A stretch of DNA of 64,000 nt from the NCBI GenBank assembly GCA_017545525.1, contig JAFWMT010000003.1, positions 60,694 to 124,693 of the forward strand, written 5' to 3'. Shown here one piece after another: positions 3,160-46,542 of the stretch; positions within the stretch are counted from its first letter, which is position 1, and each line of letters begins with the position of its first letter. This stretch comes from Candidatus Saccharimonadota bacterium (GTDB taxonomy: Bacteria; Patescibacteriota; Saccharimonadia; Saccharimonadales; Saccharimonadaceae). The position numbers and the translations under genes are program-made. The notes beneath the pieces are model-generated. The model saw nothing but the letters and a program-made list of their open reading frames with translations, was not told the DNA's origin and did no database searches.

Positions 3160-4896
3160 TTAGGCTACTATTTTGCTTTGTTTTTCGAATTGGTGGAGGT
3201 TTTGGTGATGAACGTCATGCATATAACTCTGGATGATAGGTGTTTCACTGAGATAATTTTTCCACATGCTTTGGTAGCCGTTTTTAGCATCAGACGTGTC
3301 GCCATACCCGTCGGTCATTGAATCGTGTTCATAGAGCGGCGTAATGAAGTCACCAGCAAATACCCAATTTGAACGAAGTCCAGTGCTAGTGATAGGCGCG
3401 TTGGTTTCGATATTTCCAATCCATGCATTGATGTCTCCATCTTCAGAGTACCTTTCGCACATCAGGTAGCGTAGTTTTTGATTGAATGATTGAAATAAAC
3501 GGGTTTTGACATCGCCATATAATGGATGGTCGATGTTAAAGGAGCCTAATTCGTTGCTGAAGTCTGGTGCATTAGAACCCGGGATTCTTAGAAGCTCTGG
3601 CGGCATTCTTTGGTAGGAAAAATCACTAAAATCGAAAGCTGGGTTTTTATTAATTTCTTTGTAATAGTCGCCACTTAATGTTTCTGCTTTTTGATGTGTA
3701 TCATATTCTTCATCTGTATATTTTTTAGCAGTGCCCAAAAATGCTAATTGCGGATTAATACCATTGGTTTCTATCGGGCCGGATTTTGCAATATTATTTA
3801 ATGTTTGTTGCAATTCGAATGGGAGAGTGAGGCTTTCTTCGCTATAAGCTTTGCCATACCAAGATACTATACCATTTTCGTCTTTGATGTAATCGGGTAG
3901 ATAGCGCCAAGTTCCAGCGGAATTAGAGCGATAATATGATCTTGCCTTGAATTGTCCGTCTGGGGTGAATACGTAACCAATTACGGCATCGCGACTGCCG
4001 ACCCTAAAAGTATCAGATAGGCCAATGGTAACATTGTCGAGAATGGTTTCATAACGAGGTCCTAGATTCATTCGTTTAAGATCATTTGGTGTTAAATGGC
4101 GTTCTTGTCCTTGGAAGAGTAAAGCATCGCCATCTATTTTGGTAAGCTCTAAAATTTCTTCTGGCGATAAATTGTTTGGCTGCATGTCTAATTGTTGATT
4201 TGGCGACATTTTGTTAGATTGTTGGAGAGCTAAACTTATAAGGTCTTTTGATGAGTCCCAGTATTCCTGCTTTTTACCATAAAGAACATGTTTAAAATTA
4301 TTCATGGCTTTAACATATTCTTTATACTTTTGGGGAGAATTATAGGTTTTTATGTCTTCAAGAAATGATTCTGCTTGGGTATCGAAATCTGATGGTTCGG
4401 GGAATTGGTTGTAAAATGTTTGGATTTGCGATGGTTGTACTTGATTAGGGTGGTTAAAACCGAGCCCGGTCATAGTTGCCAATATGCGTTTTTCGTGTTT
4501 TTGGTCACTGAGTCTGGCTAGTATTTGGTCTGGTGATTTTACGTCTTGCGGACCTTTAATTTGCGAAACAATATATTGAAAATCTTCAGTTTTAATAGTG
4601 CCGTTATTAATATGGTTTATAACATAGGACAATTCTTGTGTATTCATGTTAACATCTGATTGGTCCAATATGTCAAGATTACCCGATGATAAAATTTTGA
4701 CTAATTTACATTGTTGGCGTGATAATGAGAGGTCGTCTAGTTTTTCTATAGTGTTAGAGTTGCTAGGCTTTTCAGATGATGTATTAGAATCTGGTTCATT
4801 AGGGTTTTGGCCAAAGGGAACATTTTCGAGTGAGTCCCATTCAGTAGCGTTTCGATTTCGTCTGAAGACGTTGTTTGCTTTTTCAAAAAGATTCAT
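3160..4896 (-). CDS. hypothetical protein, 578 aa, no signal peptide
   Basis: Long uninterrupted ORF in an AT-rich pocket. No motif I recognise. Confidence 0.6.
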   Translation of the reverse strand: MNLFEKANNVFRRNRNATEWDSLENVPFGQNPNEPDSNTSSEKPSNSNTIEKLDDLSLSRQQCKLVKILSSGNLDILDQSDVNMNTQELSYVINHINNGTIKTEDFQYIVSQIKGPQDVKSPDQILARLSDQKHEKRILATMTGLGFNHPNQVQPSQIQTFYNQFPEPSDFDTQAESFLEDIKTYNSPQKYKEYVKAMNNFKHVLYGKKQEYWDSSKDLISLALQQSNKMSPNQQLDMQPNNLSPEEILELTKIDGDALLFQGQERHLTPNDLKRMNLGPRYETILDNVTIGLSDTFRVGSRDAVIGYVFTPDGQFKARSYYRSNSAGTWRYLPDYIKDENGIVSWYGKAYSEESLTLPFELQQTLNNIAKSGPIETNGINPQLAFLGTAKKYTDEEYDTHQKAETLSGDYYKEINKNPAFDFSDFSYQRMPPELLRIPGSNAPDFSNELGSFNIDHPLYGDVKTRLFQSFNQKLRYLMCERYSEDGDINAWIGNIETNAPITSTGLRSNWVFAGDFITPLYEHDSMTDGYGDTSDAKNGYQSMWKNYLSETPIIQSYMHDVHHQNLHQFEKQSKIVA

Positions 4897-13102: not shown

Positions 13103-13179
13103 ATGGTGGGGGTATTTGGATTCGAACCAAAGACACTGCGTGTATAAGACGCATGCTCTAACCAGCTGAGCTATACCCC
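13103..13179 (-). tRNA. tRNA-Ile (anticodon TAT)
   Basis: GGGGGTA/TACCCCC acceptor, GCTC/GAGC D-stem, anticodon stem TGCGT/ACGCA with loop CTTATAC, TTCGAAT T-loop, CCA. Confidence 0.75.
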
Positions 13180-13218
13180 CGCTACTTTATTTTACCATAA
13201 AATGATATAATGATAAGC

Positions 13219-13647
13219 ATGAACGGGATTAAAACGGCAATTCGGCGGATGAAGTTTCGGATGAAGCATGATTTTTTTTCGGTTGAAAACGTAGTATTAA
13301 TTTTAGCGATTATTTTATGTTTGGTTTGGACTTATCAATCGATTGTAGCAATGTCGAGAAACTGGAGCTTAACGGAAAAATTGGCAATGGAGAAAAAAGA
13401 GTTGGAACTTCTGACTGTGCAAGTTGAGGCGGATGAATTGGAAAATGATTATTATCGCTCGGACGAATATCAAGAACTTTTGGCGAGGAAATATCTAGAT
13501 AAAAAAATGGAGGGGGAGAATATGGTAGTATTGCCAAAAAATTCGGAAGAAGCAAAAAATAAGCATAAAAAGGTGAAAGCGGAAGCGAGTGAAGAAGATT
13601 ATTCGAATTTTGAGGAATGGATGAGATATTTATTCCCGAATTTTTAA
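13219..13647 (+). CDS. FtsB/DivIC-like septum formation initiator (bitopic, coiled coil)
   Basis: TM helix followed by a coiled coil and ...YQELLARKYLDKKMEGENMVVLP. Start set at ATG 13219, 7 nt after TATAAT. Confidence 0.5.
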   Translation: MNGIKTAIRRMKFRMKHDFFSVENVVLILAIILCLVWTYQSIVAMSRNWSLTEKLAMEKKELELLTVQVEADELENDYYRSDEYQELLARKYLDKKMEGENMVVLPKNSEEAKNKHKKVKAEASEEDYSNFEEWMRYLFPNF

Positions 13648-28923: not shown

Positions 28924-30888
28924 ATGATATTCTCAATCATTTTAAGGTGGGTTTTACCTGCCTTTGCGATTTATTTTCTTTTCACTGTGATTTCGAGCTT
29001 TCAGCATGAAGTCGAAGTGTTAGAAGTCGCAAAAAAGGAGAAAACGCTGTTTGCGGTCATAGGAAGAAGAGCAAAGCGATTTTTCGCTTGCTCGACAACT
29101 GATGACCGGGGGAGAGGCTTATTGATTGGTATCGTCGTAGGAGCGATAAATTACTTCGCTTATTATACGGCTGTCATAAGATGGCCTTATTTTCGAGTCA
29201 TAGCAGTGGTTGGGACAGTTGTTTTAGTTGCTTTTCTTATCTCTTTGGTTAGAAGAGCGCTCGACAACGATCTCGGCCCAGCTGAGATTCGAGAATTAAT
29301 CCCGTTTTTGCTTTTAGCGTGCATTTATTGCGTTACGTTAAAAGTGACAATGCCGCTTATCCTTGCGGGGTTAAATATCAATGATTTCTGGAAGTACGCG
29401 ATGAGGGCGCTTCCTTGGATTTTATTGATTATAGCCATCGTTTGGATGGTGGTCAACTACTGCCTGTATCTTGTTGAGGACGTTTACGTCGAAAACGAGA
29501 AGAAGCGCGGAAGTGCTTCTAAGGCAGTAGCGACGCTTGCCGTTGTTCTTGGGGCGATTTTGATTGCAATGGCAATTATTAAGTTACCCTGGGGGACGGT
29601 AGTCGCCTCGGCAGCGTATTCTGATAGTGGCGTGAAAATCGCCGAATCAGAAGCCGCCGGGAAAACCTCACCTTCTTCGGGAGCCTCTTCGGAGGTTTCC
29701 GAGAAGGAAGCGGAGGCGGAGATGGTCAAGGTCTTGACCGTTCCGAAGCTCACTCCGGAAGAGCTCGAGAAACTGACCGTGAATAAATATGCGGCCATTT
29801 CCGAGACGCTTCTCGATTCTTCTTTGTCTCCTAAGGACAAGGCAAGAACTGAGGAAACCGGCTTCTTCGATGCTCTGACTTTTGGATTCGCGTCCAAAAG
29901 TGACGAGGAGAAATTCTCGGAGCTCGAGGAAGAAGTGCTTCGGAACCCCGTTTACGGGGTAACCTTGGCGAAGGCGCTGAAAGGCAAGTACATCGGCTCC
30001 AAAAAGCTTGGAGACTTGAACCCCTGGATGGGGGAGATGGTCGAAAAGAATAAGGCCGGAGTATTTATTTGGTGTGAATATAGGGACGATTCTGGGACGA
30101 TTTATGTCACTCCAGAATATCGCCTCTATGCGGCGACGTTATGTACGTTCTTGGAACGTTTAACGCCGCAGGGTATCAAAAAGCTTCAGACGGTCGAGAA
30201 CTGGTGTTTAAATAGTGCCATGAAAAATAACGACCGTCGGGGTATTGAAGCTGAGTACCAATATAAGAAAAAGGCTTTAATACTAGAGGCTGTTGGAAAG
30301 GACGGCTCAGTGATGTTTAGAATGGGCTTCAATGTCCATGATAAACGTCCGGAGTTCTTCGATGAAGAACCAGCGCCGGAACCGACTCCGGATGAACCAA
30401 TACCGACACCGGATGAGCCGACGCCGACACCTGGACCGGAACCGACTCCGGAACCGACTCCGGAACCGACTCCAGAACCGCCGACACCGACTCCAGAACC
30501 GCCGACACCGACACCGGAGCCGCCGACACCGACGCCTCAGTATGATAAAGACCCGGAGGATGCCCCGAAGGAAAATACTGAACCGAACGATGACCCGGGT
30601 CCGGGCCCGGAAACTAACAATCCGGATGATCCTCAGCATTCAACTGAGGACCAGCCGGAAAACTCCGACCATTACCCCTCTTACGAGGAGTATCGGGAGG
30701 ACATGGAGGAGATGGAGGAAACCAATCAGAACCAGAAAACTGGGGAAGATGATAATACCCCATCGACTCCGAAGCCATCGGAGGATACAGTTGTCGACAA
30801 TCCTGACGACAACATGTATACTCCGGTGACACCAGGAGAAACTGTCAACGATGAAACGTCTGACGGGCATATCACGTTGGACGACTAA
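28924..30888 (+). CDS. polytopic membrane protein with soluble domain, PEPT-repeat linker and acidic tail (654 aa)
   Basis: SD aaggagg. ~6 N-terminal TM helices. PEPTPEPTPEPTPEPPTPTPEPPTPTPEPPTPTP. No recognisable family. Confidence 0.65.
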   Translation: MIFSIILRWVLPAFAIYFLFTVISSFQHEVEVLEVAKKEKTLFAVIGRRAKRFFACSTTDDRGRGLLIGIVVGAINYFAYYTAVIRWPYFRVIAVVGTVVLVAFLISLVRRALDNDLGPAEIRELIPFLLLACIYCVTLKVTMPLILAGLNINDFWKYAMRALPWILLIIAIVWMVVNYCLYLVEDVYVENEKKRGSASKAVATLAVVLGAILIAMAIIKLPWGTVVASAAYSDSGVKIAESEAAGKTSPSSGASSEVSEKEAEAEMVKVLTVPKLTPEELEKLTVNKYAAISETLLDSSLSPKDKARTEETGFFDALTFGFASKSDEEKFSELEEEVLRNPVYGVTLAKALKGKYIGSKKLGDLNPWMGEMVEKNKAGVFIWCEYRDDSGTIYVTPEYRLYAATLCTFLERLTPQGIKKLQTVENWCLNSAMKNNDRRGIEAEYQYKKKALILEAVGKDGSVMFRMGFNVHDKRPEFFDEEPAPEPTPDEPIPTPDEPTPTPGPEPTPEPTPEPTPEPPTPTPEPPTPTPEPPTPTPQYDKDPEDAPKENTEPNDDPGPGPETNNPDDPQHSTEDQPENSDHYPSYEEYREDMEEMEETNQNQKTGEDDNTPSTPKPSEDTVVDNPDDNMYTPVTPGETVNDETSDGHITLDD

Positions 30889-35535: not shown

Positions 35536-36082
35536 TGAAGCGTGGCAAGTGTTTTACCCGAATGGTGAACCTATTCGTGGTGAAGGTTGGAATTCGGCGT
35601 TAGATAATCCGGAAAAAACTGGCGTTGATAAAATAGTAGGAGTGGCGATTGTGTTTTTATATCGTTTGAATGAGCAGGGTAAATTAGAATTATTATGGCA
35701 AAAAAGATCGGATGCGGTGGATAGATATCCAGGTTATTACGATATTTCAGCGGGTGGGCATATTAATCTTGGCGAGACGGTGATAGAAGGGGCGATACGT
35801 GAAGCAAAAGAGGAGATTGGTGCTGAAATTTTGCCAGAAGATTTACAGTTTGCTTTTACGAAGCCATTTAATAAGAATCGGTTTGCTTGGATTTTTATGG
35901 TGGATTGGACGGGGAAACTGGAAAATTTTCAGTTTAATGATAAAGAGGTTTCTGAAGTGAAATGGGTATCTTATGATGAGAACGAGGCTTTTCGGAAGGA
36001 ATTTGCAAAACCGCCGTTAGCAAAAGATGATTTAACTTTTATGAATTTGAATGATTGGTTCAAAATGCGTGAGATAGTTTAA
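35525..36082 (+). CDS. NUDIX hydrolase
   Basis: Nudix box [23 protein letters not shown]. Confidence 0.8.
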
Positions 36083-36789
36083 TGGAAATTATAAAATTAA
36101 ATGAGCCTAATAACATATTTACGATTACGAATTTAAAGCAGGGTGTAAAAAATCCGAATCGAGTAAATGTTTATATAGACGAAACATTTGCTTTTTCACT
36201 TGATGTAGCTCAAGTGGTAGATTTTAAGTTAAAAGTTAGACAAAAAATCTCAGAAGAAGACTTAGAAAAATATAAAAAAGCTAGTGAATTTGGGAAATTA
36301 TATCAAAGAACTTTGGAATGGGTGTTAATAAGGCCGAGGTCGGAAAAGGAAACGAGAGAATACTTGCGTAGAAAATTCAGAATGTCTTCTTCGGGACGTT
36401 CGTCACTCCCGTCTTCACGGGGTTCCTCACTGCGTCCTCGTAGCAACTGCGGATGCCCCTCAGAAGACATTCTTGAATTTTCTCGGACAATTATTGAGCG
36501 TTTAGTCGAGAAAGGATATGTAGATGATCGAAAGTTTGCGGAGTATTATGTTGAGAATCGGTTTGTGAAAAAAGGGATTTCGCAGAAGAGGTTGAAGATG
36601 GAACTAATGAAAAAAGGAATTGCGGCGGAAATAATTGAGGAAGTTTTGGGCGGGAGAAATGATGAAGAAGAAATTCGGAAAATGGTGATGAAAAAGCGGG
36701 GAAAATATGATGAAGAAAAATTAATTGCATATCTTTGTCGTCAAGGATTTAGTTACGATTTAGTAAAAAAAGTAGTTGAAGAAGACTAA
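36082..36789 (+). CDS. recX: RecA regulator RecX carrying a ~30-aa S/R/P-rich insertion
   Basis: Position after recA. Repeated helical RecX motifs (...ERLVEKGYVDDRKFAEYYVENR...). Confidence 0.7.
   Translation: MEIIKLNEPNNIFTITNLKQGVKNPNRVNVYIDETFAFSLDVAQVVDFKLKVRQKISEEDLEKYKKASEFGKLYQRTLEWVLIRPRSEKETREYLRRKFRMSSSGRSSLPSSRGSSLRPRSNCGCPSEDILEFSRTIIERLVEKGYVDDRKFAEYYVENRFVKKGISQKRLKMELMKKGIAAEIIEEVLGGRNDEEEIRKMVMKKRGKYDEEKLIAYLCRQGFSYDLVKKVVEED
36372..36481 (+). repeat. GC-rich in-frame insertion bounded by inverted repeats (element A, in recX)
   Basis: Arms aaaattcagaatgtcttct / agaagacattcttgaatttt (11 bp perfect). The 71-nt core is ~63% GC by hand count and contains the hairpin cccgt-cttc-acggg. 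Confidence 0.8.
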
Positions 36790-37382
36790 GCTTCTTCTTG
36801 TTCAGTTTCGGAAGGAGAGAAACCTGGTTGTTTTTCGCGGAAAGGATTGACGAAGTTTGGGATAAAATCTTCTTTTTCGGCACGAGCTTTTAAAACTTTT
36901 TCTTCATCTTTAATGATAACTTTGTAGTCGGTAATCTCAACGATTTCTTTTCTGGAGATAGTAAGTTCGGGATCAAGGAAAGATTTCAAAGTTGGACGCT
37001 TAACGATGAGCTGTTGGATGACGAAATCTTCTGAAGTAACAGTGTAGTCTTCGACGTGACCGAGCTTAGAGCCTTTTTTGGTTTCGACTTTAAGGTTGAT
37101 GAGGTTAAAATTTAGTTTTAAAATATCTGAAATTTTAACGACATCGTCATCGGCGATGAGTTCTTCTACGCTATCTATAACCATGCCGAGATTAGAATAT
37201 TCGCGAATTGATTCTACAGCTAAAAGATTATTTGCTCTATCAACGAGTGGGCCTTGAAGGCGGAAGGCGATGATTTTAAGATTGTCGGGGTTAACGATGG
37301 GTTCGGTGATGAAACCGACAGGGGCGCCAGTCTGGACGCTAAGTACTGGTACGTTTAAGAGTCGAGAGCGATAAACTAACAT
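36786..37382 (-). CDS. double PRC-barrel domain protein
   Basis: LLNVPVLSVQTG.PVG...I..D...I.AF and a second similar half. Confidence 0.5.
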   Translation of the reverse strand: MLVYRSRLLNVPVLSVQTGAPVGFITEPIVNPDNLKIIAFRLQGPLVDRANNLLAVESIREYSNLGMVIDSVEELIADDDVVKISDILKLNFNLINLKVETKKGSKLGHVEDYTVTSEDFVIQQLIVKRPTLKSFLDPELTISRKEIVEITDYKVIIKDEEKVLKARAEKEDFIPNFVNPFREKQPGFSPSETEQEEA

Positions 37383-37386
37383 AAGT

Positions 37387-38097
37387 CTATTGTAGCATAA
37401 TAGTGTCTTTAACGCTATAATTGCCAACAGAAATACGGCGAAGGGCAGTGAGGTAGGCGCCGGTGCCGAGTTTTTTGCCGATATCTTCGGCGAGAGTTCT
37501 AATATAAGTGCCAGAGCTGCAATGGACTTTAATTTTGAGTTCGGGATAATTGTAGTCTAGAATTTCAATACTATAAATTGTGACTTTTCTAGTCGGAGTT
37601 TCAAAGTCTTTGCCTTTTCTGGCGAGTTTGTAGGCTCTTTCGCCGTTGATTTTGACGGCGCTGAATCTCGGGACTTGTTGGCTGATTTCACCATTGAACG
37701 AGTAGAGAATAGATTCAACAATATTCCGTTCGGGGCCGCGTCCGGCCGGCCCGTCGCCACGGGCGGCCGGCGCTATAACTCGCGCTGCCGCGCTCCGTAA
37801 TACCCCTTCACTGGAATATTGTTGAATTTCTCCTTCAGGGTCGCCGGTGGTGGAAGTGTAGCCGAGCTTTAGGGTAGCTTCGTAGACTTTGTCGAGCTTC
37901 AAAAATTCGTTGGATTTTTTGGTCATTTTGCCGGTTAATAAAATTAGGAGTCCAGTCGCAAAAGGGTCTAGCGTACCAGTATGGCCGACTTTTATTTTAT
38001 GGCCAAGTTCAGCTTTCAATTTCCCGCGAACTTTAGCGACGACGCCGAAACTGGAAATACCGGCAGGTTTGTCAATGAGAATAATCTGGTCTTCCAT
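37387..38097 (-). CDS. truB: tRNA pseudouridine-55 synthase carrying a ~25-aa A/R/G/P-rich insertion
   Basis: IDKPAGISS..., GHTGTLDPFATGLL catalytic motif, CSSGTYIR. Confidence 0.9.
   Translation of the reverse strand: MEDQIILIDKPAGISSFGVVAKVRGKLKAELGHKIKVGHTGTLDPFATGLLILLTGKMTKKSNEFLKLDKVYEATLKLGYTSTTGDPEGEIQQYSSEGVLRSAAARVIAPAARGDGPAGRGPERNIVESILYSFNGEISQQVPRFSAVKINGERAYKLARKGKDFETPTRKVTIYSIEILDYNYPELKIKVHCSSGTYIRTLAEDIGKKLGTGAYLTALRRISVGNYSVKDTIMLQ
37713..37827 (+). repeat. GC-rich in-frame insertion bounded by inverted repeats (element B, in truB)
   Basis: Arms attcaacaatattcc / ggaatattgttgaat (15 bp perfect). 85-nt very GC-rich core with the hairpin cccgt-cgcc-acggg. Confidence 0.8.
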
Positions 38098-38190
38098 ATC
38101 TTTATTATACCATTGATAACAGATATGAGAAAAAATTGAATGCCATGAAAATCTTATGATATAATGAAATTAGTTAAACGGAGGAACAAT

Positions 38191-38880
38191 ATGAAAAAAT
38201 ATTTTGCCGAATTTATCGGTACCATGGTTTTGGTGCTGATTGGTTGTGGCACGGCAATGGCAGTAGGATGTGATCCGGCGAATGGGAGCGGGTACATTTT
38301 GACGGCTTTTGCGTTTGGGTTGGGCCTGATTACGATGGCTTATAGCATCGGGAATATTTCAGGATGCCATATTAATCCAGCAGTGTCGCTTGGGATGTTA
38401 ATTTCGAAAAGAATTTCTGTGAAAGATTTCTGGGGATATATTGCTTTCCAAATTTTAGGAGCGTTAGCTGGAGCTGGGCTTTTAGCGTTAATCTTCAATG
38501 GATCAGGTATTGTAGACATGACGGGAGCTTATGGCTCAAATGGACTAGCCGGTGTTAATGGTGATATGGGTATTGGCGTTCTAGTTGAAATATTACTAAC
38601 GTTTGTCTTTGTACTTTCTGTACTTGGCGTGACTTCGGAAAAAGCCAAACATGGTCATGTAGCGGGGGTAGTGATTGCTTTCTCACTAGTTGCGGTACAT
38701 ATTCTAGGGATTGGCTTAACGGGAACGAGTGTAAACCCAGCAAGATCGCTTGGGCCAGCAATTGTTTCGGCGTTTAGCGGTAGCGGAGCGGCGCTTGGCG
38801 TAGTTTGGGTATTTATCGTTGGACCATTAGTAGGCGGAGCTTTGGCGGCGTATACTTATAAGATGTTAGAGAAGAAATAG
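38191..38880 (+). CDS. MIP-family aquaporin/glycerol facilitator
   Basis: Two NPA boxes (HINPAVS, SVNPARS). Six TM helices. SD ggagga. Confidence 0.88.
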   Translation: MKKYFAEFIGTMVLVLIGCGTAMAVGCDPANGSGYILTAFAFGLGLITMAYSIGNISGCHINPAVSLGMLISKRISVKDFWGYIAFQILGALAGAGLLALIFNGSGIVDMTGAYGSNGLAGVNGDMGIGVLVEILLTFVFVLSVLGVTSEKAKHGHVAGVVIAFSLVAVHILGIGLTGTSVNPARSLGPAIVSAFSGSGAALGVVWVFIVGPLVGGALAAYTYKMLEKK

Positions 38881-38927
38881 TGCTAATAGGGGTTCACAGA
38901 TGAGGGGATTTGTGGTATAATGGGGCA

Positions 38928-39194
38928 ATGATAACAAAAGAGAATAAGGACAAGGCTATTGCCAAGGTTGCTCGTAATAAAGCGGACGTTGGTTCTCCTG
39001 AAGTTCAAGTTTCGATTCTAACGGAGCGGATTAAAGAAGTAACCGCGCACGTAAAGAATAACAAACATGACTTTATGGCCAAAAGAGGTTTAATGCAGAT
39101 GGTAGGGAAGCGAAAGAAATTGCTGCGCTATCTTGAAGAGACCGATTTTGAGCTATATAAGAAGACTGTGAAGAAGCTCGGCCTCAGGAAATAA
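38928..39194 (+). CDS. rpsO: ribosomal protein uS15
   Basis: GSPEVQVSILTERI..L..H.K.NKHD..S.RGL..MV.KR..LL.YL. Start 6 nt after TGGTATAAT. Confidence 0.9.
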   Translation: MITKENKDKAIAKVARNKADVGSPEVQVSILTERIKEVTAHVKNNKHDFMAKRGLMQMVGKRKKLLRYLEETDFELYKKTVKKLGLRK

Positions 39195-39208
39195 ATTAGC
39201 AAGAGAAA

Positions 39209-39235
39209 ACCCGTCGGTTAAACCGGCGGGTTTTT
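39209..39235. terminator. bidirectional intrinsic terminator
   Basis: acccgtcggtt-aa-accggcgggt flanked by A- and T-runs, between convergent rpsO and the alarmone synthetase gene. Confidence 0.75.
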
Positions 39236-39244
39236 GTATGGGAC

Positions 39245-39880
39245 TTATGAATCGCGGAGTTTGATGGCTTTTTCCTCAACTTTAGTGAGGGCATCAGCAA
39301 GCTCACGAAACATTTTCTCGATTTTTTCCCGTTTTTCTTCGGGAAGATTGGCATTTTTATACTTAAGACTATGTTCGATAGTAGCCCAGAAATCCATCGC
39401 TTTGTCGCGGATTTGGATTTCGATGGGGAACTTTTTGGATCCGAAGCCTGGATAGAAGATATTAACCTCGATGTGGAGGTGATAACTACTATATCCATTT
39501 GGCTTTGGATTCTTGACATAGTCTTTTTCGTCTAAAATGACGAAATCTGGGAATTGGTGGAGAATTTCCACCACCCGATAGATATCGTCGCGGAAAGCCG
39601 TAGTGATACGGATGCCGGCGATATCGAGGATATTCTTCTTAACACTTTCGAGCGTAAAAGGATGACCTTTTCGGCCACACTTTTCTTCAACGGATCCGTA
39701 TTCTTTGATGCGAGATTCATATTGCTCAAAAGGATTTCTTCCCTCGGAACGTTCCATCGAGCGATCCATAATTTCAATGGAAGCCATGGCCTTATTCATT
39801 GCATCTTCGTATTCGATGGCAAGGGCCTCATAGTCTTCCTCTGTCAATAAATTTAAGTTGCTTTTTTCTGTTTCTTGCAT
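39245..39880 (-). CDS. small alarmone synthetase (RelQ/RelP-type GTP pyrophosphokinase)
   Basis: DIAGIRITT, GYSSYHL and EIQIRD.AMDFWA..EH motifs. Single domain, 211 aa. Confidence 0.8.
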   Translation of the reverse strand: MQETEKSNLNLLTEEDYEALAIEYEDAMNKAMASIEIMDRSMERSEGRNPFEQYESRIKEYGSVEEKCGRKGHPFTLESVKKNILDIAGIRITTAFRDDIYRVVEILHQFPDFVILDEKDYVKNPKPNGYSSYHLHIEVNIFYPGFGSKKFPIEIQIRDKAMDFWATIEHSLKYKNANLPEEKREKIEKMFRELADALTKVEEKAIKLRDS

Positions 39881-40061
39881 TATTACTACCCCCGTAAAAT
39901 ATTTAGAGAGGAACAGAAACCAAACCCCTCATGTTTAATTATAGCATACTTTGCTAAAAAAGTCAATGTTTGGTATAATAAAAAGAGTAAATTAACATGG
40001 GAAGACGGCAGATATAAGATGGGGCTTATACCTGAAGTTTTCCCGAGAAAGGAACATTTTT

Positions 40062-42236
40062 ATGGATATTATTAACCCTAACGGAAAGAAGACAGTTAGA
40101 GTTTCAACAGAGTGGCTGGGGCGGGAGTTGACTCTAGAGGTAAACAGGGTAGGTTTTAGGACGACTTCGTCGGTCTTAGTAACCTATGGAGACACCGTAG
40201 TTTTAGGTTCGGTGGTAGTGGGGACGAAGCCGGTAGTACAGGATTTCTTCCCGCTTTCAATAGATTATGAAGAGAAGTGGTATGCGGCGGGCAAGATTTC
40301 GGGCTCGCGGTTTATTAAGAGAGAGGGGAAGCCGGCGGATGAGGCAGTACTGGTTGGGCGATTAATTGATCGGCCGATTCGACCGTTATTCCCTAAGGGA
40401 TATCGTCAAGAAATACAGGTAGTTTGCACGGTTCTATCGATGGATCCGGCTTTTCGTCCAGATTGCGTGGCAATGATTGCAGCGTCGTCTGCTTTAATGA
40501 ATGCGGGAGTGCCGTTTGATGGGCCGGTAGCGGGGATTAGAATTGGGCGAGTCGGGGATGAATTTAAGGGCTTTTTGTCGCCGGAAGAGAGAGAAGTTTC
40601 GCCAATGGACCTTGTAGTAGCGTGTAAAGACGGTAAAATTATGATGGTCGAGGCGGGAATGAAAGAAGTGCCAGAAGAGATGATTATTGAGGCGATGCAA
40701 TGGGCGGTAAAGAATGTGCAACCAGCGTTAGATCTACAGAGAGAATTAGCAAAACAGGTAGCGATGCCGGAGCAGGAATATGAGCTAGTTTTGCCGTCGG
40801 AAGAGGTAATTAAAGAGGTAGCGGATTGGACGGAAGGGAAATTTGGTTTGAAGATTCGGGGGAATGTGATGGAGCGAGCGCAGGTGTTAGACGATATTAA
40901 ATATGCGATGCATGATGAATTTGCGCTCTCTAAAGGGGAGGGTGAGACGGACAATGAGAAGGTAGCATGGTATGACGAGAATTTAAGGGATGTGTATGAT
41001 CAAGCGTTTGAGTTAGCGGTATTTAAAGAGGTAAGGAGAGGGATTGTTGAGGAAGGCGTGCGTCCAGATGGACGAAAGTTGAACGAGGTGAGGCCTCTGT
41101 CGAGTCAGATTTCAATTTTGCCGAGGACACATGGTTCATCTTTGTTTACCAGAGGTGTTACTCAGGCAATGAATATAGTGACACTCGCGCCTTTGTCGTA
41201 TTCGCAAGATGTGGATACAATGGAAGTAACAGAGGGGAAAAGGCGCTATATGCATCATTATAATGCGCCATCTTATACGGTAGGAGAACCTGGGCGGATT
41301 GGTTCGCCGGGGCGACGCGAGATTGGGCATGGATATTTGGCGGAGAGAGCGTTAATCCCGGTTTTGCCTTCGGAAGAAGAATTTCCTTACGCGATTCGTT
41401 CGGTGACTGAAATTATGTCGCAAAATGGTTCGACTTCGATGGCGGCAACTTGTTCGTCTTGTATGGCGTTAATGGATGCGGGGGTGCCGATTAAGCGACC
41501 AGTTTCGGGGGTAGCGATGGGACTAATGGTAGATGTGCCTAAGGGGTCTGAGATTACGGCGAAAGATGTTGATAAGGCATATGTTCTAACCGATTTGATG
41601 GATGCGGAAGATTTTGCAGGCGATATGGACTTTAAAGTCACAGGGACTAAAGAGGGTGTAACGGCCTTGCAGATGGATATGAAAGTGCATGGGCTGCCGG
41701 TAGAAATTATGGAAAAGGCTTTGAAACAGTCGCATGAGGGTAGGATGTTCATTCTAGAGCATTTAGTTTCGGTGATTGCGGAGCCGAGGAAAGAGATTTC
41801 GCCGTATGCGCCAAGAATTGAGAAATTGATGATTTCGCCAGATAAGATTGGGGCGGTGATTGGTAAAGGTGGCGAAATGATTAATAAGATTACGACAGAA
41901 ACTGGGGCGGAAGTAGATATTGAGGATTCGGGGTTGGTGACGGTATCGGGAAGTGATCCAGAAAGAATTCAAAAAGCATTAGATTGGATTAAATCGTTAA
42001 CTGAGGAACCGGAAGTAGGAAAAATTTATGAGGGAACGGTGGTTTCGATTAAAGATTTCGGAGCATTTGTAAATATTATGCCTGGAATTGATGGGATGTT
42101 GCATATTTCGCAAATTACAGATAAGAAGCGTCTGAAGAAGGTAGAAGAAGTTTTGCACGTAGGGGACAAAGTGAAAGTACGATTAGTGGCGATTGATCAT
42201 GGAAAATTGAGTTTATCGATGATAAACGTAAAATAA
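40062..42236 (+). CDS. pnp: polynucleotide phosphorylase
   Basis: Two RNase PH domains, KH (GKGGEMINKI) and S1 (GTVVSIKDFGAFV). Confidence 0.95.
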   Translation: MDIINPNGKKTVRVSTEWLGRELTLEVNRVGFRTTSSVLVTYGDTVVLGSVVVGTKPVVQDFFPLSIDYEEKWYAAGKISGSRFIKREGKPADEAVLVGRLIDRPIRPLFPKGYRQEIQVVCTVLSMDPAFRPDCVAMIAASSALMNAGVPFDGPVAGIRIGRVGDEFKGFLSPEEREVSPMDLVVACKDGKIMMVEAGMKEVPEEMIIEAMQWAVKNVQPALDLQRELAKQVAMPEQEYELVLPSEEVIKEVADWTEGKFGLKIRGNVMERAQVLDDIKYAMHDEFALSKGEGETDNEKVAWYDENLRDVYDQAFELAVFKEVRRGIVEEGVRPDGRKLNEVRPLSSQISILPRTHGSSLFTRGVTQAMNIVTLAPLSYSQDVDTMEVTEGKRRYMHHYNAPSYTVGEPGRIGSPGRREIGHGYLAERALIPVLPSEEEFPYAIRSVTEIMSQNGSTSMAATCSSCMALMDAGVPIKRPVSGVAMGLMVDVPKGSEITAKDVDKAYVLTDLMDAEDFAGDMDFKVTGTKEGVTALQMDMKVHGLPVEIMEKALKQSHEGRMFILEHLVSVIAEPRKEISPYAPRIEKLMISPDKIGAVIGKGGEMINKITTETGAEVDIEDSGLVTVSGSDPERIQKALDWIKSLTEEPEVGKIYEGTVVSIKDFGAFVNIMPGIDGMLHISQITDKKRLKKVEEVLHVGDKVKVRLVAIDHGKLSLSMINVK

Positions 42237-42244
42237 TTGGGGTT

Positions 42245-44086
42245 ATGGATAAGATTCGAAATTTTTGTATTATTGCGCATATCGATCACGGGAAATCGAC
42301 GATTGCTGATCGGATGATGGAACTAACGGGGACGGTGGAAAAAAGAGAGATGAAGGAGCAGCTACTTGATTCGATGGAATTGGAACGCGAAAAAGGGATT
42401 ACGATTAAGCTTGCGCCGGTGACGATGAAGTGGAAGGGATATACGCTGAATTTGATTGATACGCCGGGGCATGTGGATTTTTCGTATGAGGTTTCGCGGT
42501 CGCTGGCGGCGGTAGAAATTGCAGTTTTAGTAGTTGATGCGACACAGGGGATTCAGGCGCAAACTTTGGCGAATGTTTATCTAGCTTTAGAACAGAATCT
42601 AAAGATTATTCCGGTGATTAATAAAATTGATTTGCCGGCGGCGGATGTAGAAGGGGTGGCGGCGCAGATTATGAATTTGCTTGGATGTAAGCGTGAGGAA
42701 ATTGTCGAAGCGAGTGGTAAAACTGGGTTTGGCGTAGATAAATTATTGGATGAAATTATAAAACACGAGCCGATGATTGTTTCGTCGCCGGAGTCCTCGC
42801 GCCTGTCTTCACAGGGCTCGGCTCCTATGGCTCGACAGCAGTCTGCGCAATGCGCCGGAACAACATCGTCTCGTGCTCTTATTTTCGATTCGTATTTTGA
42901 CGATTATCGAGGGGTGGTGCTTTATGTGAGGGTATTTGAGGGAGAGATTAGAAAAAATGCGGAAATTTTGATGATGGCGGCGGGAGCGAAGGGTTTGGCG
43001 CTTGAAGTTGGAGTATTGACGCCGAAAATGACCCCGCGAGAAAAATTATCGGCGGGAGAGATTGGCTATATTGTGACAAACTTAAAGACAACTAGAGAAG
43101 CGAAAGTTGGTGATACAGTTACGTTAGCAGAAAAGCCAGCTTTAGAGTCGCTGCCTGGTTACAAGAATGTGTTGCCGTTTGTTTATGCGGGATTTTTCCC
43201 AGTTTCGAATGATCAATATAAAGATTTAAAGGAAGCAGTGGAAAAATTGGCGTTGTCGGATTCGGCGCTTCGGTTTGAGCCGGAGAATTCGCCAGTTTTA
43301 GGGTTTGGACTGAGGATTGGCTTTTTAGGACTCTTGCATATGGATATTATTAAAGAACGACTAGAACGAGAGTTTAATTTAGATTTGATTGTAACGAATC
43401 CATCGACTAACTACGAAGTTTTAATGAACAATAGTGAGGTGATTGAAATTAAGTCGGCTGCGGATTTGCCGGATATGAGTGAGATAAGTGAAATCAGAGA
43501 GCCGTGGGTAAAAGGAGAAATTATTTTACCGAAATCAATGATTGGCAATGTTCTAAATTTAATCAACGAAAAGCGTGGGCATCAGACGAATCTTGGTTAT
43601 ATTGAAGAAAGGGCAGTAATTGATTTTGAGGCGCCGATGGCAAATTTATTGACAGATTTTTATGATCAGCTAAAGTCGGCGACTTCTGGTTATGCGTCGT
43701 TTAATTATGAATTGAACGGTTATCGGACGGAAGATTTGGTGAGAATAGATTTTTTGGTTGGAGGGCATAAAATTGATGCGTTGTCGGTAATGGCGCATCG
43801 GAGCGAGGCGGAAAGAATTGGGCGTGAGGTGACAAAGAAATTAAAAGCGATTATTCCGAGACAGAATTATGAAGTGGCTTTGCAAGCGGCGATTGGAGCA
43901 AGAATTATAGCGCGGGAAACGATTGGGGCTTATCGGAAAGACGTAACAGTAAAGATTCATACAGGAGACAGGGATAGGAAGGCGAAATTACTTGAGAAGC
44001 AGAAACGCGGAAAAGCGCGCATGAAAAGGTTTGGCAAAATTGATATACCGTCCGAAGCATTTACGGTGATGTTAAAAAGAGATTAG
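42245..44086 (+). CDS. lepA: translation factor EF4 (LepA) carrying a ~25-aa S/A/Q-rich insertion
   Basis: IRNFCIIAHIDHGKST, DTPGHVDF, NKID, and the conserved C-terminal LepA domain. Confidence 0.95.
   Translation: MDKIRNFCIIAHIDHGKSTIADRMMELTGTVEKREMKEQLLDSMELEREKGITIKLAPVTMKWKGYTLNLIDTPGHVDFSYEVSRSLAAVEIAVLVVDATQGIQAQTLANVYLALEQNLKIIPVINKIDLPAADVEGVAAQIMNLLGCKREEIVEASGKTGFGVDKLLDEIIKHEPMIVSSPESSRLSSQGSAPMARQQSAQCAGTTSSRALIFDSYFDDYRGVVLYVRVFEGEIRKNAEILMMAAGAKGLALEVGVLTPKMTPREKLSAGEIGYIVTNLKTTREAKVGDTVTLAEKPALESLPGYKNVLPFVYAGFFPVSNDQYKDLKEAVEKLALSDSALRFEPENSPVLGFGLRIGFLGLLHMDIIKERLEREFNLDLIVTNPSTNYEVLMNNSEVIEIKSAADLPDMSEISEIREPWVKGEIILPKSMIGNVLNLINEKRGHQTNLGYIEERAVIDFEAPMANLLTDFYDQLKSATSGYASFNYELNGYRTEDLVRIDFLVGGHKIDALSVMAHRSEAERIGREVTKKLKAIIPRQNYEVALQAAIGARIIARETIGAYRKDVTVKIHTGDRDRKAKLLEKQKRGKARMKRFGKIDIPSEAFTVMLKRD
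42764..42875 (+). repeat. GC-rich in-frame insertion bounded by imperfect inverted repeats (element C, in lepA)
   Basis: Arms cacgagccgatgattgtt / aacaacatcgtctcgtg. 77-nt GC-rich core with the hairpin cctgt-cttc-acagg and the ctcgacagcagtctgcg block resembling element A. Confidence 0.75.
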
Positions 44087-46209: not shown

Positions 46210-46542
46210 TTATTTTTTAGGTTCACTAATGCGGGCGGGGCGACCATAGTCGGGAAGGATGATTTGGTGGGATTTGTGATGATGGTCGTAGAGGGGAATA
46301 TTTAGTTCGCTGGCTAAGGTATTAACGATAGTAGCGCCAATACGTAACCCGGTAAAGGAACCTGGGCCGGACATAAAAGTGATTTCTGTGATATCGTTAA
46401 AAGTCTTATGATTTTCTGCTAGTTTATCTTTGATAAATTCAAGTAATTTTTCAGCTAAATCATTGGCGAAGGTATATTTATATTCTTTATCGTCGAGTTT
46501 TAAAATAGTTTCGGGTGTACTAGTGTCTAAATATAGTTTCAT
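46210..46542 (-). CDS. tsaB: truncated TsaB-like protein (N-terminal half only, 110 aa)
   Basis: LDTST...SGPGSFTGLRIG motif. ATGA-type overlap with tsaE. Confidence 0.65.
   Translation of the reverse strand: MKLYLDTSTPETILKLDDKEYKYTFANDLAEKLLEFIKDKLAENHKTFNDITEITFMSGPGSFTGLRIGATIVNTLASELNIPLYDHHHKSHQIILPDYGRPARISEPKK

Follow-up and report, generated by a model that had tools for sequence, protein, structure and literature searches.

What are the GC-rich, hairpin-bounded segments that interrupt three conserved genes in one stretch of a Saccharibacteria (TM7) genome, and how do they come to have similar centres between borders that are all different? In this stretch of 64,000 nt (hereafter the window; 40.2% GC overall), recX, truB and lepA each carry one element, named A, B and C respectively, in which a GC-rich core is enclosed by an inverted repeat whose two halves are called arms. 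We consider it probable that the elements are selfish non-coding cassettes that sit at hairpin tips and are translated through where this is tolerated, and that template switching maintains their arms and flips their cores. The host genes and the elements lie as listed below, with Pfam families assigned on L081, a related locus whose recX, truB and lepA are identical to the window genes.

36082-36789 (+): recX, 235 amino acids; Pfam RecX_N and RecX_HTH2 (identical gene in L081)
36372-36481 (+): element A, in recX; left arm 36372-36390, core 36391-36461, right arm 36462-36481
36408-36421 (+): central hairpin of A, CCCGT-CTTC-ACGGG
37387-38097 (-): truB, 236 amino acids; Pfam TruB_N; element B encodes residues about 94-129
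37706-37834 (+): element B, in truB (gene on -); core 37728-37812, central hairpin 37750-37763
42245-44086 (+): lepA, encoding EF4, 613 amino acids; Pfam GTP_EFTU and LepA_C
42764-42874 (+): element C, in lepA; arms 42764-42781 and 42858-42874, core 42782-42857, central hairpin 42802-42815

The GC-rich cores and the AT-rich, copy-specific inverted repeats in recX, truB and lepA were found where the original prediction, made from the sequence of the window, had placed them. The core of A is 71 nt long with 63% GC, that of B 85 nt with 74% GC and that of C 76 nt with 67% GC, and the arms have 26%, 27% and 49% GC, respectively. The arms of A are paired at 19 of 20 positions with one bulged base; those of B form a perfect 15-bp repeat (37713-37727 and 37813-37827), extendable to 22 nt at 86% over 37706-37834; and those of C, 17-18 nt long, contain one mismatch and one indel. 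Each element folds as one long hairpin of 110-115 nt, with fold energies of -53.5, -66.2 and -52.6 kcal/mol for A, B and C (z = -7.0, -7.2 and -4.0), and 0 of 200 shuffles folded as well as any of them. The motif CCYGTCNYCACRGG occurs exactly three times in the window, always on the + strand, against 0.11 occurrences expected, and three were reached in 1 of 100 shuffles. In addition, a motif that had been noticed in both A and C, ctcg.agca..ctgcg, proved to be the second hairpin of the element family. All three cores point the same way on the + strand, even in truB, a gene of the - strand, and none contains a stop in the frame of its host; both features had been foreseen.

Relatives of the window were collected with the neighbouring PNPase gene as query, which yielded 80 syntenic loci in genome assemblies (L001-L080) and, in a further scan of metagenomes, 80 more. 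All 80 assembly loci belong to Candidatus Saccharibacteria or Nanosyncoccus, their PNPases are 73-92% identical in protein sequence to that of the window, and their sources are mostly the gut of sheep, goat, yak, buffalo and deer. The metagenome scan revealed no strain-level relatives (best match 92% identity), and an exact-protein look-up of ribosomal protein S15 for sister strains returned the window's own strain only. In 1.47 Mb of sequence from these related loci, 49 instances of the central hairpin were counted.

Forty-three copies were aligned, and a consensus structure made up of a closing stem, a first hairpin in two tiers and the base of a second was drawn by hand, since RNAalifold on a plain MAFFT alignment, in which the stems are out of register, recovered the central hairpin only. 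In the hand-drawn structure 79.7% of cells are paired, compared with 66% in shuffles and 31-57% when the partners were slid, and 123 cells carry double changes, compared with 51 in shuffles, none of 500 of which was as high. In the central hairpin of A, four of the five pairs are invariant across the 43 copies and the fifth covaries from C-G to U-A. A covariance model built from this alignment, R1, was run on the window with filters off and gave three matches only, namely A with 55.3 bits (E = 4e-16), B with 76.3 bits and C with 66.2 bits, the next-best candidate reaching 10.6 bits. Around pnp in related gut and rumen Saccharibacteria, R1 matched 71 more copies (by set of loci, 57 in L001-L080 and 16 in L082-L161), and six unrelated loci (L165-L170) contained 14 copies, each with its own arms of 15-35 base pairs; scores reached 97 bits, with E as low as 1e-29. 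The copies outside the window number 85. No copy was matched in L100-L161, which come from more distant, largely human-associated relatives. These results demonstrate that the cores of A, B and C belong to one structured family supported by covariation, whose unit is a cassette of about 75 nt that is closed by a G/C stem and has CCCGT-NNNN-ACGGG at the tip of its first hairpin, followed by a short second one; as far as sampled, the family is confined to gut and rumen Saccharibacteria. The original prediction was to be abandoned if orthologues in many unrelated lineages had the same segment, or if there were no further copies and no supported similarity among the cores: orthologues in E. coli and in close relatives are without the segment, and the many further copies have a similarity that is supported statistically and by covariation.

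Searches for a known identity returned nothing. Rfam gave no family match on either strand, for the whole window at gathering thresholds or for the element region at E up to 10, apart from microRNA noise on element C alone at the latter setting. A scan of the window for tRNA and tmRNA detected nothing at the elements, and a scan of viral contigs for the core pattern gave three matches, all of them chance hits to the central hairpin alone. It is scarcely credible that the elements are artefacts of metagenome assembly, or ancestral hypervariable loops that are alike by composition alone. The window and all relatives are indeed metagenome-derived, and the three sites are hypervariable in length generally, but 100% identical copies were present in independent assemblies of different studies (L015/L091, L005/L085 and L007/L088), the same cores occur in unrelated genes, and scores as high as those above come with covariation.

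Several other hairpins were noticed in the same loci. GC-rich hairpin inserts unmatched by R1 lie between efp and its upstream neighbour gene in L066, L076, L056, L065 and L041 and at the murB site in L003 and L045; these genomes probably contain more than one such hairpin family. In L099, two copies of one long-armed GC-rich hairpin (1190-1350 and 2530-2670) lie 1.3 kb apart; they have common arms and a common second hairpin, and the CCCGTCGTTACGGG hairpin module is present in the first copy only, which shows that single hairpins are gained or lost as modules. In L087, two family elements (4083-4184 and 4473-4573) lie within one 655-codon lepA reading frame.

Are the segments insertions, or loops that the host proteins have always had? 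Element A encodes residues about 97-132 of RecX, between helical repeats, a segment that is unaligned to solved RecX structures (an example of the insert peptide is SSSGRSSLPSSRGSSLRPR). In TruB, the 36 residues 94-129 stand opposite 13 residues in the alignment with E. coli TruB. Element C occupies the linker that joins the G domain of EF4 to domain II (residues 184-209), where E. coli EF4 (3cb4_D) has 3 residues. Close relatives contain empty alleles of 33 nt at recX, 63 nt at truB and 27-30 nt at lepA, the last being AT-rich and encoding, for example, IEVINSNQT; the corresponding filled sites of the window measure 108, 132 and 99 nt. Since close relatives and E. coli are without the segments, the GC-rich cores in recX, truB and lepA are insertions and not ancestral loops, in line with the in-frame insertions that had been proposed. 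The proposed size of 25-35 extra codons needs correction: the extra segments are present, but their excess over the nearest empty alleles is 23-25 codons. Across relatives the site lengths range over 27-180 nt for lepA, 51-210 nt for truB and 27-174 nt for recX, and all alleles shorter than 400 nt at these sites have lengths divisible by 3.

The same sites also hold inserts of other kinds. At the truB site of L007 (8489-8647) and L003 (7979-8170) lie AT-rich palindromes in which an outer stem encloses two hairpins and no GC-rich core is present, and at the recX site of L009, L027, L031 and L039 there are purine-rich segments of 93-153 nt that encode charged, K/E/R-rich peptides. In six relatives, lepA is split into two genes within the linker that holds element C (window 42773-42871), at the following positions.

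L002, 8391-8878: split lepA
L004, 8945-11882: split lepA
L011, 6905-10396: split lepA
L016, 12703-13444: split lepA
L017, 8206-8947: split lepA
L024, 5771-6467: split lepA

The N-terminal part stops just past the conserved GP.PR motif, and the C-terminal part has its own ATG with a TGnTATAAT-like promoter ahead of it; between the halves lies either an insert of 0.5-0.7 kb with an open reading frame or a gene for a secreted repeat protein of 845-1004 amino acids. In addition, lepA of L009 contains a 117-nt palindromic insert of different sequence (13241-13357) with two in-frame stops and an ATG just 3' of it, and this gene may be split in place rather than a pseudogene.

The genomic context of the family was analysed in the 74 copies of the pnp neighbourhood. 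Fifty-eight of them (78%) lie within long open frames, in truB (20 copies), lepA (19), recX (13), tsaB (4) and murB (2), and the other 16 are intergenic, five of these in the pnp 5' leader. All 58 intragenic copies are stop-free in the host frame. All six frames are used (sense 10, 12 and 11; antisense 1, 13 and 5), which indicates that the sequence of the insert peptide is incidental and that no peptide is conserved. A query with the translated core peptide returned 94 proteins with 75-100% identity over about 27 residues; they represent at least 25 housekeeping families, including MnmA, TsaD/TsaB, Obg, Der, DnaX, RarA, UvrB, UvrC, IscS, QueA, MiaA, TrmD, TatD, GatA, GatB, ArgRS, AlaRS, PolA, PriA and others, and all those with a source name are from Candidatus Saccharibacteria. 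Six of the matching genes, taken with their flanks, gave the loci L165-L170. Together with the 14 copies in these six loci, the protein families show that the element is distributed genome-wide. The presence of three copies within 6.5 kb had raised the idea of local spread, which was dropped: by a rough estimate the chance of such clustering is about 0.03, and the family is genome-wide.

At tsaB, one of the host genes, the window itself has a TsaB/TsaD-like gene of just 110 codons (46210-46542, -) directly adjoining tsaE. The relatives have, across the element at the tsaB site, a frame of 249-294 codons without stops, and some database proteins with the core peptide combine TsaD-like and TsaE domains.

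Judged from these frames, the intragenic inserts are most probably translated as an unstructured linker rich in S, R, P, A and G. The inserts might instead be removed before or during expression, as an RNA intron (self-splicing or with a bulge-helix-bulge), a translational bypass element or a mini-intein. The flanking inverted repeat would juxtapose both ends in the RNA, the L009 lepA insert contains in-frame stops, and ribosomes can bypass GC-rich mobile clusters in genes of AT-rich yeast mitochondria. Removal would, however, free length and stops from constraint, yet the alleles below 400 nt are all multiples of three and every intragenic copy is stop-free. Moreover, orientation relative to the gene varies, no intron or ribozyme family was matched, about 25 codons without a conserved peptide are far too short for an intein, and the ATG just past the L009 insert, with lepA split there in six genomes, gives a simpler account of the stops. 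Removal is thus very unlikely.

If the peptide is incidental, what is transmitted? Cores in different genes are 88-96% identical (truB of L035 and the pnp leader of L023, 96%; truB of L020 and lepA of L035, 92%; truB of the window and lepA of L087, 89%), and for 23 of the 58 intragenic copies the nearest core relative lies in another gene. A single site holds several core subfamilies (three at recX, at least five at truB and at least four at lepA), and the sites of one genome usually hold different ones. The arms, on the other hand, are orthologous across species at one locus, and an arm search gave no match to any arm at another locus, apart from orthologous sites and the duplicate in L099. 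Exceptions to such locus-private arms are found in L056 and L061, each of which has two intergenic copies with the same long arms. In truB of L072, L077 and L080, the left arm includes the conserved G-E-I codons and the right arm mirrors it; in L072, the ancestral coding sequence GGGGAAATT, which encodes G-E-I, is overlapped by the arm. In 16 of 17 cases the truB core is on the + strand of the chromosome irrespective of the strand of the gene, whereas the arms are constant in gene orientation, which means that the core was flipped or replaced between retained arms. At lepA, the same site holds the same core in opposite orientations in L013 and in L005/L018. These results show that cores move between genes and are replaced and flipped between arms that are retained.

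The arms also change together. Between species, the arms of 13 recX orthologues have become very different, whereas within a species 94.6% of their cells are paired. Double changes were observed in 12 of 17 pairs, with 34 double-change cells compared with 3 in which a single side had changed, and transversions were among them; this excess argues for concerted evolution by copying and not for stepwise compensation through wobble pairs. The arms are thus persistent local palindromes that evolve in concert, and not the ends of a mobile unit.

These findings bear on whether the elements are ordinary MITEs (transposable elements of the miniature inverted-repeat type), or repeats of the repetitive extragenic palindrome (REP) or REPIN type, moved by a transposase or a REP-associated tyrosine transposase (RAYT) encoded elsewhere, with the arms as diverged terminal inverted repeats. 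The paired intergenic copies of L056 and L061 would be expected under this explanation, and a 94-nt presence/absence difference between L004 and L087, described below, shows an inner inverted repeat of 5 bp and an overlap of two nucleotides, AT, that is a possible target duplication. The strand bias of the cores, also described below, recalls transposons of the IS200/IS605 type, which move as single strands. However, the arms differ at every locus and had no match at other loci, they overlap ancestral coding sequence in truB of L072, and orthologous arms outlast changes of both core subfamily and orientation; in addition, most copies are intragenic, unlike REPs, and no transposase was seen in the window or beside the copies. 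We therefore regard this explanation as improbable, and the arms private to each locus bear out the earlier remark that copy-specific flanks are at odds with ordinary terminal inverted repeats.

Does the orientation of the cores follow the gene or the chromosome? In the window, GC skew on the + strand is uniformly positive (+0.05 to +0.38 per 4 kb), even over long genes on the - strand, and the window as a whole appears to lie within one replichore; in pnp-oriented loci, the skew of the + strand is likewise always positive. Core orientation in the pnp neighbourhood is 65 + versus 9 -, or 37 versus 7 when copies were collapsed to 44 lineages by site, orientation and core identity (p = 5e-6). 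Relative to the host gene, 34 cores are in the same sense and 24 in the opposite one. Of 11 informative copies in the six independent loci, 8 are in keeping with the local skew; the direction is the same, but this sample by itself is not significant. These results show that orientation follows the chromosome strand and not the gene, the C-rich core strand coinciding with the G-rich strand, presumably the leading one. Under DNA energy parameters, this core strand is less stable than its complement in 67 of 74 copies, by a mean of 2.4 kcal/mol, and it contains 44 G-T pairs compared with 95 on the complement. Taken together with the orientation bias, this suggests that the less stable strand tends towards the presumed lagging-strand template. 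Differential survival of asymmetric palindromes in E. coli has reportedly been described by Trinh and Sinden, and such survival would fit the strand bias as well as strand-specific insertion would.

The strand of truB itself relative to pnp differs among close relatives (the window versus L006, L008, L013, L028, L030, L034, L039 and L075), which indicates that small local inversions or rearrangements recur near pnp.

With the arms and the orientation in hand, a role in RNA can be weighed, namely that the hairpins are mRNA devices selected by the host for RNase III processing and decay or for ribosome pausing at domain boundaries, with selection keeping the pairing. Many compensatory changes have left the pairing of arms and inner stems intact, the sites in lepA and recX fall at domain boundaries, and the pnp 5' leader is a recurrent site; in E. 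coli, a hairpin in the pnp leader that is cleaved by RNase III mediates autoregulation. Against this, orientation is near random with respect to the gene, so that the mRNA carries either the core or its complement, and the G-rich strand folds better whichever strand is transcribed. Presence, subfamily and orientation all vary at one site among close relatives, the double changes of the arms far outnumber the single ones, include transversions and leave few wobble intermediates, and Rfam contains no match on either strand. Selection for an RNA device appears quite improbable on this evidence.

How a core is gained or lost was traced in the pnp leader, where the window has an unoccupied counterpart site.

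39999-40044 (+): short hairpin in the pnp 5' leader

In L002, L004, L011, L023 and L082, this hairpin is lengthened and carries a core at its tip, whereas L087 has an arms-only allele. From the pnp promoter into the gene, L004 and L087 share about 98% identity; what sets them apart is a clean segment of 94 nt, placed exactly at the centre of a palindrome whose arms of about 23 bp are retained in both. The segment comprises the core together with an inner inverted repeat of 5 bp (ATCTA...TAGAT), and its 2-nt overlap, AT, may reflect either duplication of the target or microhomology at a deletion. A search for further near-identical flanks with different insert state returned two pairs only, both in the same state. 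Arms-only palindromes are also present in lepA of L033 and L039, and partial remnants in L045, whose lepA keeps only the GGAC/GTCC closing stem of the core, and in L003, whose recX keeps the left arm, the first core bases (TCGG) and the outer end of the right arm. At the recX, truB and lepA sites, a filled allele is longer than an empty one by roughly one core length (66-102 nt), which suggests that the arms there largely overwrite pre-existing sequence; in the pnp leader, the arms are clearly additional sequence.

These observations can be joined in the following scheme. The mobile or exchangeable unit would be the core with a few flanking bases, which would come in, drop out or be exchanged in the middle of a hairpin already present. 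The long arms, private to each locus, would be local sequence, one of them overlapping ancestral sequence of the host and the other being its mirror image; template switching within a strand at replication would keep them complementary, and the same process could invert the core. Copies would land genome-wide and be seen only where they are harmless, in intergenic hairpins or, in frame and stop-free, in protein linkers or surface loops. A template switch between two short inverted repeats makes their arms alike and turns the spacer round (PMC8604942), and quasipalindrome mutagenesis by this route is established in E. coli (PMC7202029), from which we infer that template switching is the cause of arm homogenisation and flipping here. 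It accounts for arms and flipping but not for near-identical cores in unrelated genes, and the transfer of cores between loci might depend on an enzyme acting in trans or on ectopic template switching. We hold the scheme of selfish cassettes as a whole to be probable and are less confident about the means of core transfer and the cause of the strand bias.

Several points weigh against this scheme. The strand bias comes mainly from one syntenic neighbourhood, in which copies are non-independent, and stands at 8 to 3 in the six independent loci. Gain and loss are represented by a single near-isogenic presence/absence pair, which insertion and symmetric deletion both fit. Translation was deduced from frame and stop statistics alone, and the lepA insert of L009 has its two in-frame stops. 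The long arms at a brand-new site may have been copied at insertion or grown later. A perfect stem of 20-35 bp in an mRNA could bring RNase III cleavage or ribosome pausing. Finally, no transposase or mobilising gene was seen in the window or in the flanks fetched around the copies, whole genomes lying outside this search.

The private, mirrored arms might also be made by the element itself. In this alternative, the cores would be a mobile element without terminal repeats of its own, which either integrates as a folded single strand at a hairpin apex on the lagging-strand template or makes its hairpin by self-primed fold-back copying of the target flank; the latter would amount to an inverted, and not a direct, target duplication. 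If true, it would explain the private mirrored arms, the replacement of cassettes between retained arms and the replication-strand bias, and it would imply an unrecognised enzyme or an enzyme-free, replication-dependent spread. We regard it as rather unlikely, though worth keeping in mind.

Two features of the window lie apart from the elements.

13104-13180 (-): tRNA-Ile with anticodon TAT (UAU), predicted by ARAGORN
30366-30612 (+): GC-rich (up to 73%) tandem repeat within the open reading frame 28924-30888

In most bacteria, AUA is decoded by a CAU tRNA modified by TilS instead of a UAU tRNA, and the predicted tRNA may have a bearing on AUA decoding in this lineage. The tandem repeat encodes a proline-rich, low-complexity segment of the P-E-P-T-P-D-E-P type and has no relation to the hairpin elements.

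The genomes of Saccharibacteria and other ultra-small bacteria are commonly regarded as streamlined and poor in repeats. Here a hairpin element occupies loops of dozens of essential proteins, among them EF4, TruB, RecX, Obg, Der, DnaX, UvrB/C, GatA/B, aminoacyl-tRNA synthetases and DNA polymerase I. Its inserts enlarge and diversify these proteins and will interfere with gene calling, alignment and marker-gene phylogenies in these lineages. The family offers a natural experiment on the birth of palindromes, the upkeep of their pairing, their flipping and their loss in a bacterium, with many replicated loci at which template switching and strand-biased hairpin instability can be tested, and, should the way in which it spreads turn out to be new, it would represent a novel kind of transposition.

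How does the family compare with known systems? REPs are extragenic, have a conserved GTAG or CGTC head and co-occur with a RAYT gene (PMC3733652). The Saccharibacteria elements resemble REPs and REPINs in being small, GC-rich, hairpin-forming palindromes in many copies, and REPs are thought to move as single strands; they differ in that 78% of copies are intragenic. The CGTC present in many copies lies inside the tip of the first hairpin and not in an external head, and neither a conserved head tetranucleotide outside the stem nor, in the sequence covered, a RAYT gene was seen. MITEs differ in that the Saccharibacteria copies have no terminal inverted repeats conserved between them, their arms being private to the locus except in the duplicated intergenic copies of L056 and L061. 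Of the R''/R' boxes of attC sites (RYYYAAC ... GTTRRRY), by inspection, A has neither, C has both in reverse order, and AAC ... GTT is present in B alone. Bulge-helix-bulge, hammerhead and attC readings were set aside after the folds and sequences had been examined by eye, as the junctions fit none of them. Template switching, or quasipalindrome mutagenesis, is a mutational process and not an element, and it matches the homogenisation of arms and the inversion of the spacer.

To our knowledge, neither flank-mirroring arms nor replication-strand bias has been described for mitochondrial GC clusters, double-hairpin elements and repetitive hairpin-forming elements. These elements are GC-rich hairpin or double-hairpin modules in AT-rich, compact genomes, in coding as well as intergenic positions and often nested, much like the Saccharibacteria family, and are known from yeasts, Allomyces, sponges and placozoans (PMC4478555, PMC2800124, PMC7813641). 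They are organellar whereas the host here is bacterial, and the likeness is one of form only.

The closest counterparts are the Rickettsia palindromic elements (RPEs), which the original prediction had named. RPEs are about 150 bp long, and the members of each family encode, in one fixed frame, a peptide that is conserved (PMC10969869; Ogata et al. 2000 summarised there). Both are short, multi-copy palindromes of a reduced bacterial genome that lie in frame in many unrelated housekeeping genes and are read as selfish. The Saccharibacteria unit, by contrast, is about 75 nt plus local arms, is read in six frames and encodes no conserved peptide; its arms are locus-specific, co-evolve and outlast the core, whereas RPEs are without such arms; and the host phylum differs, the comparison being one of descriptions and not of sequences. 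The predicted resemblance to RPEs is therefore retained as a functional likeness and given up as membership, as no peptide is conserved and six frames are used. Full-text searches of the literature found no prior description of such elements in Saccharibacteria, and the element is apparently undescribed, a counterpart in Saccharibacteria of the selfish in-frame palindromes of Rickettsia.

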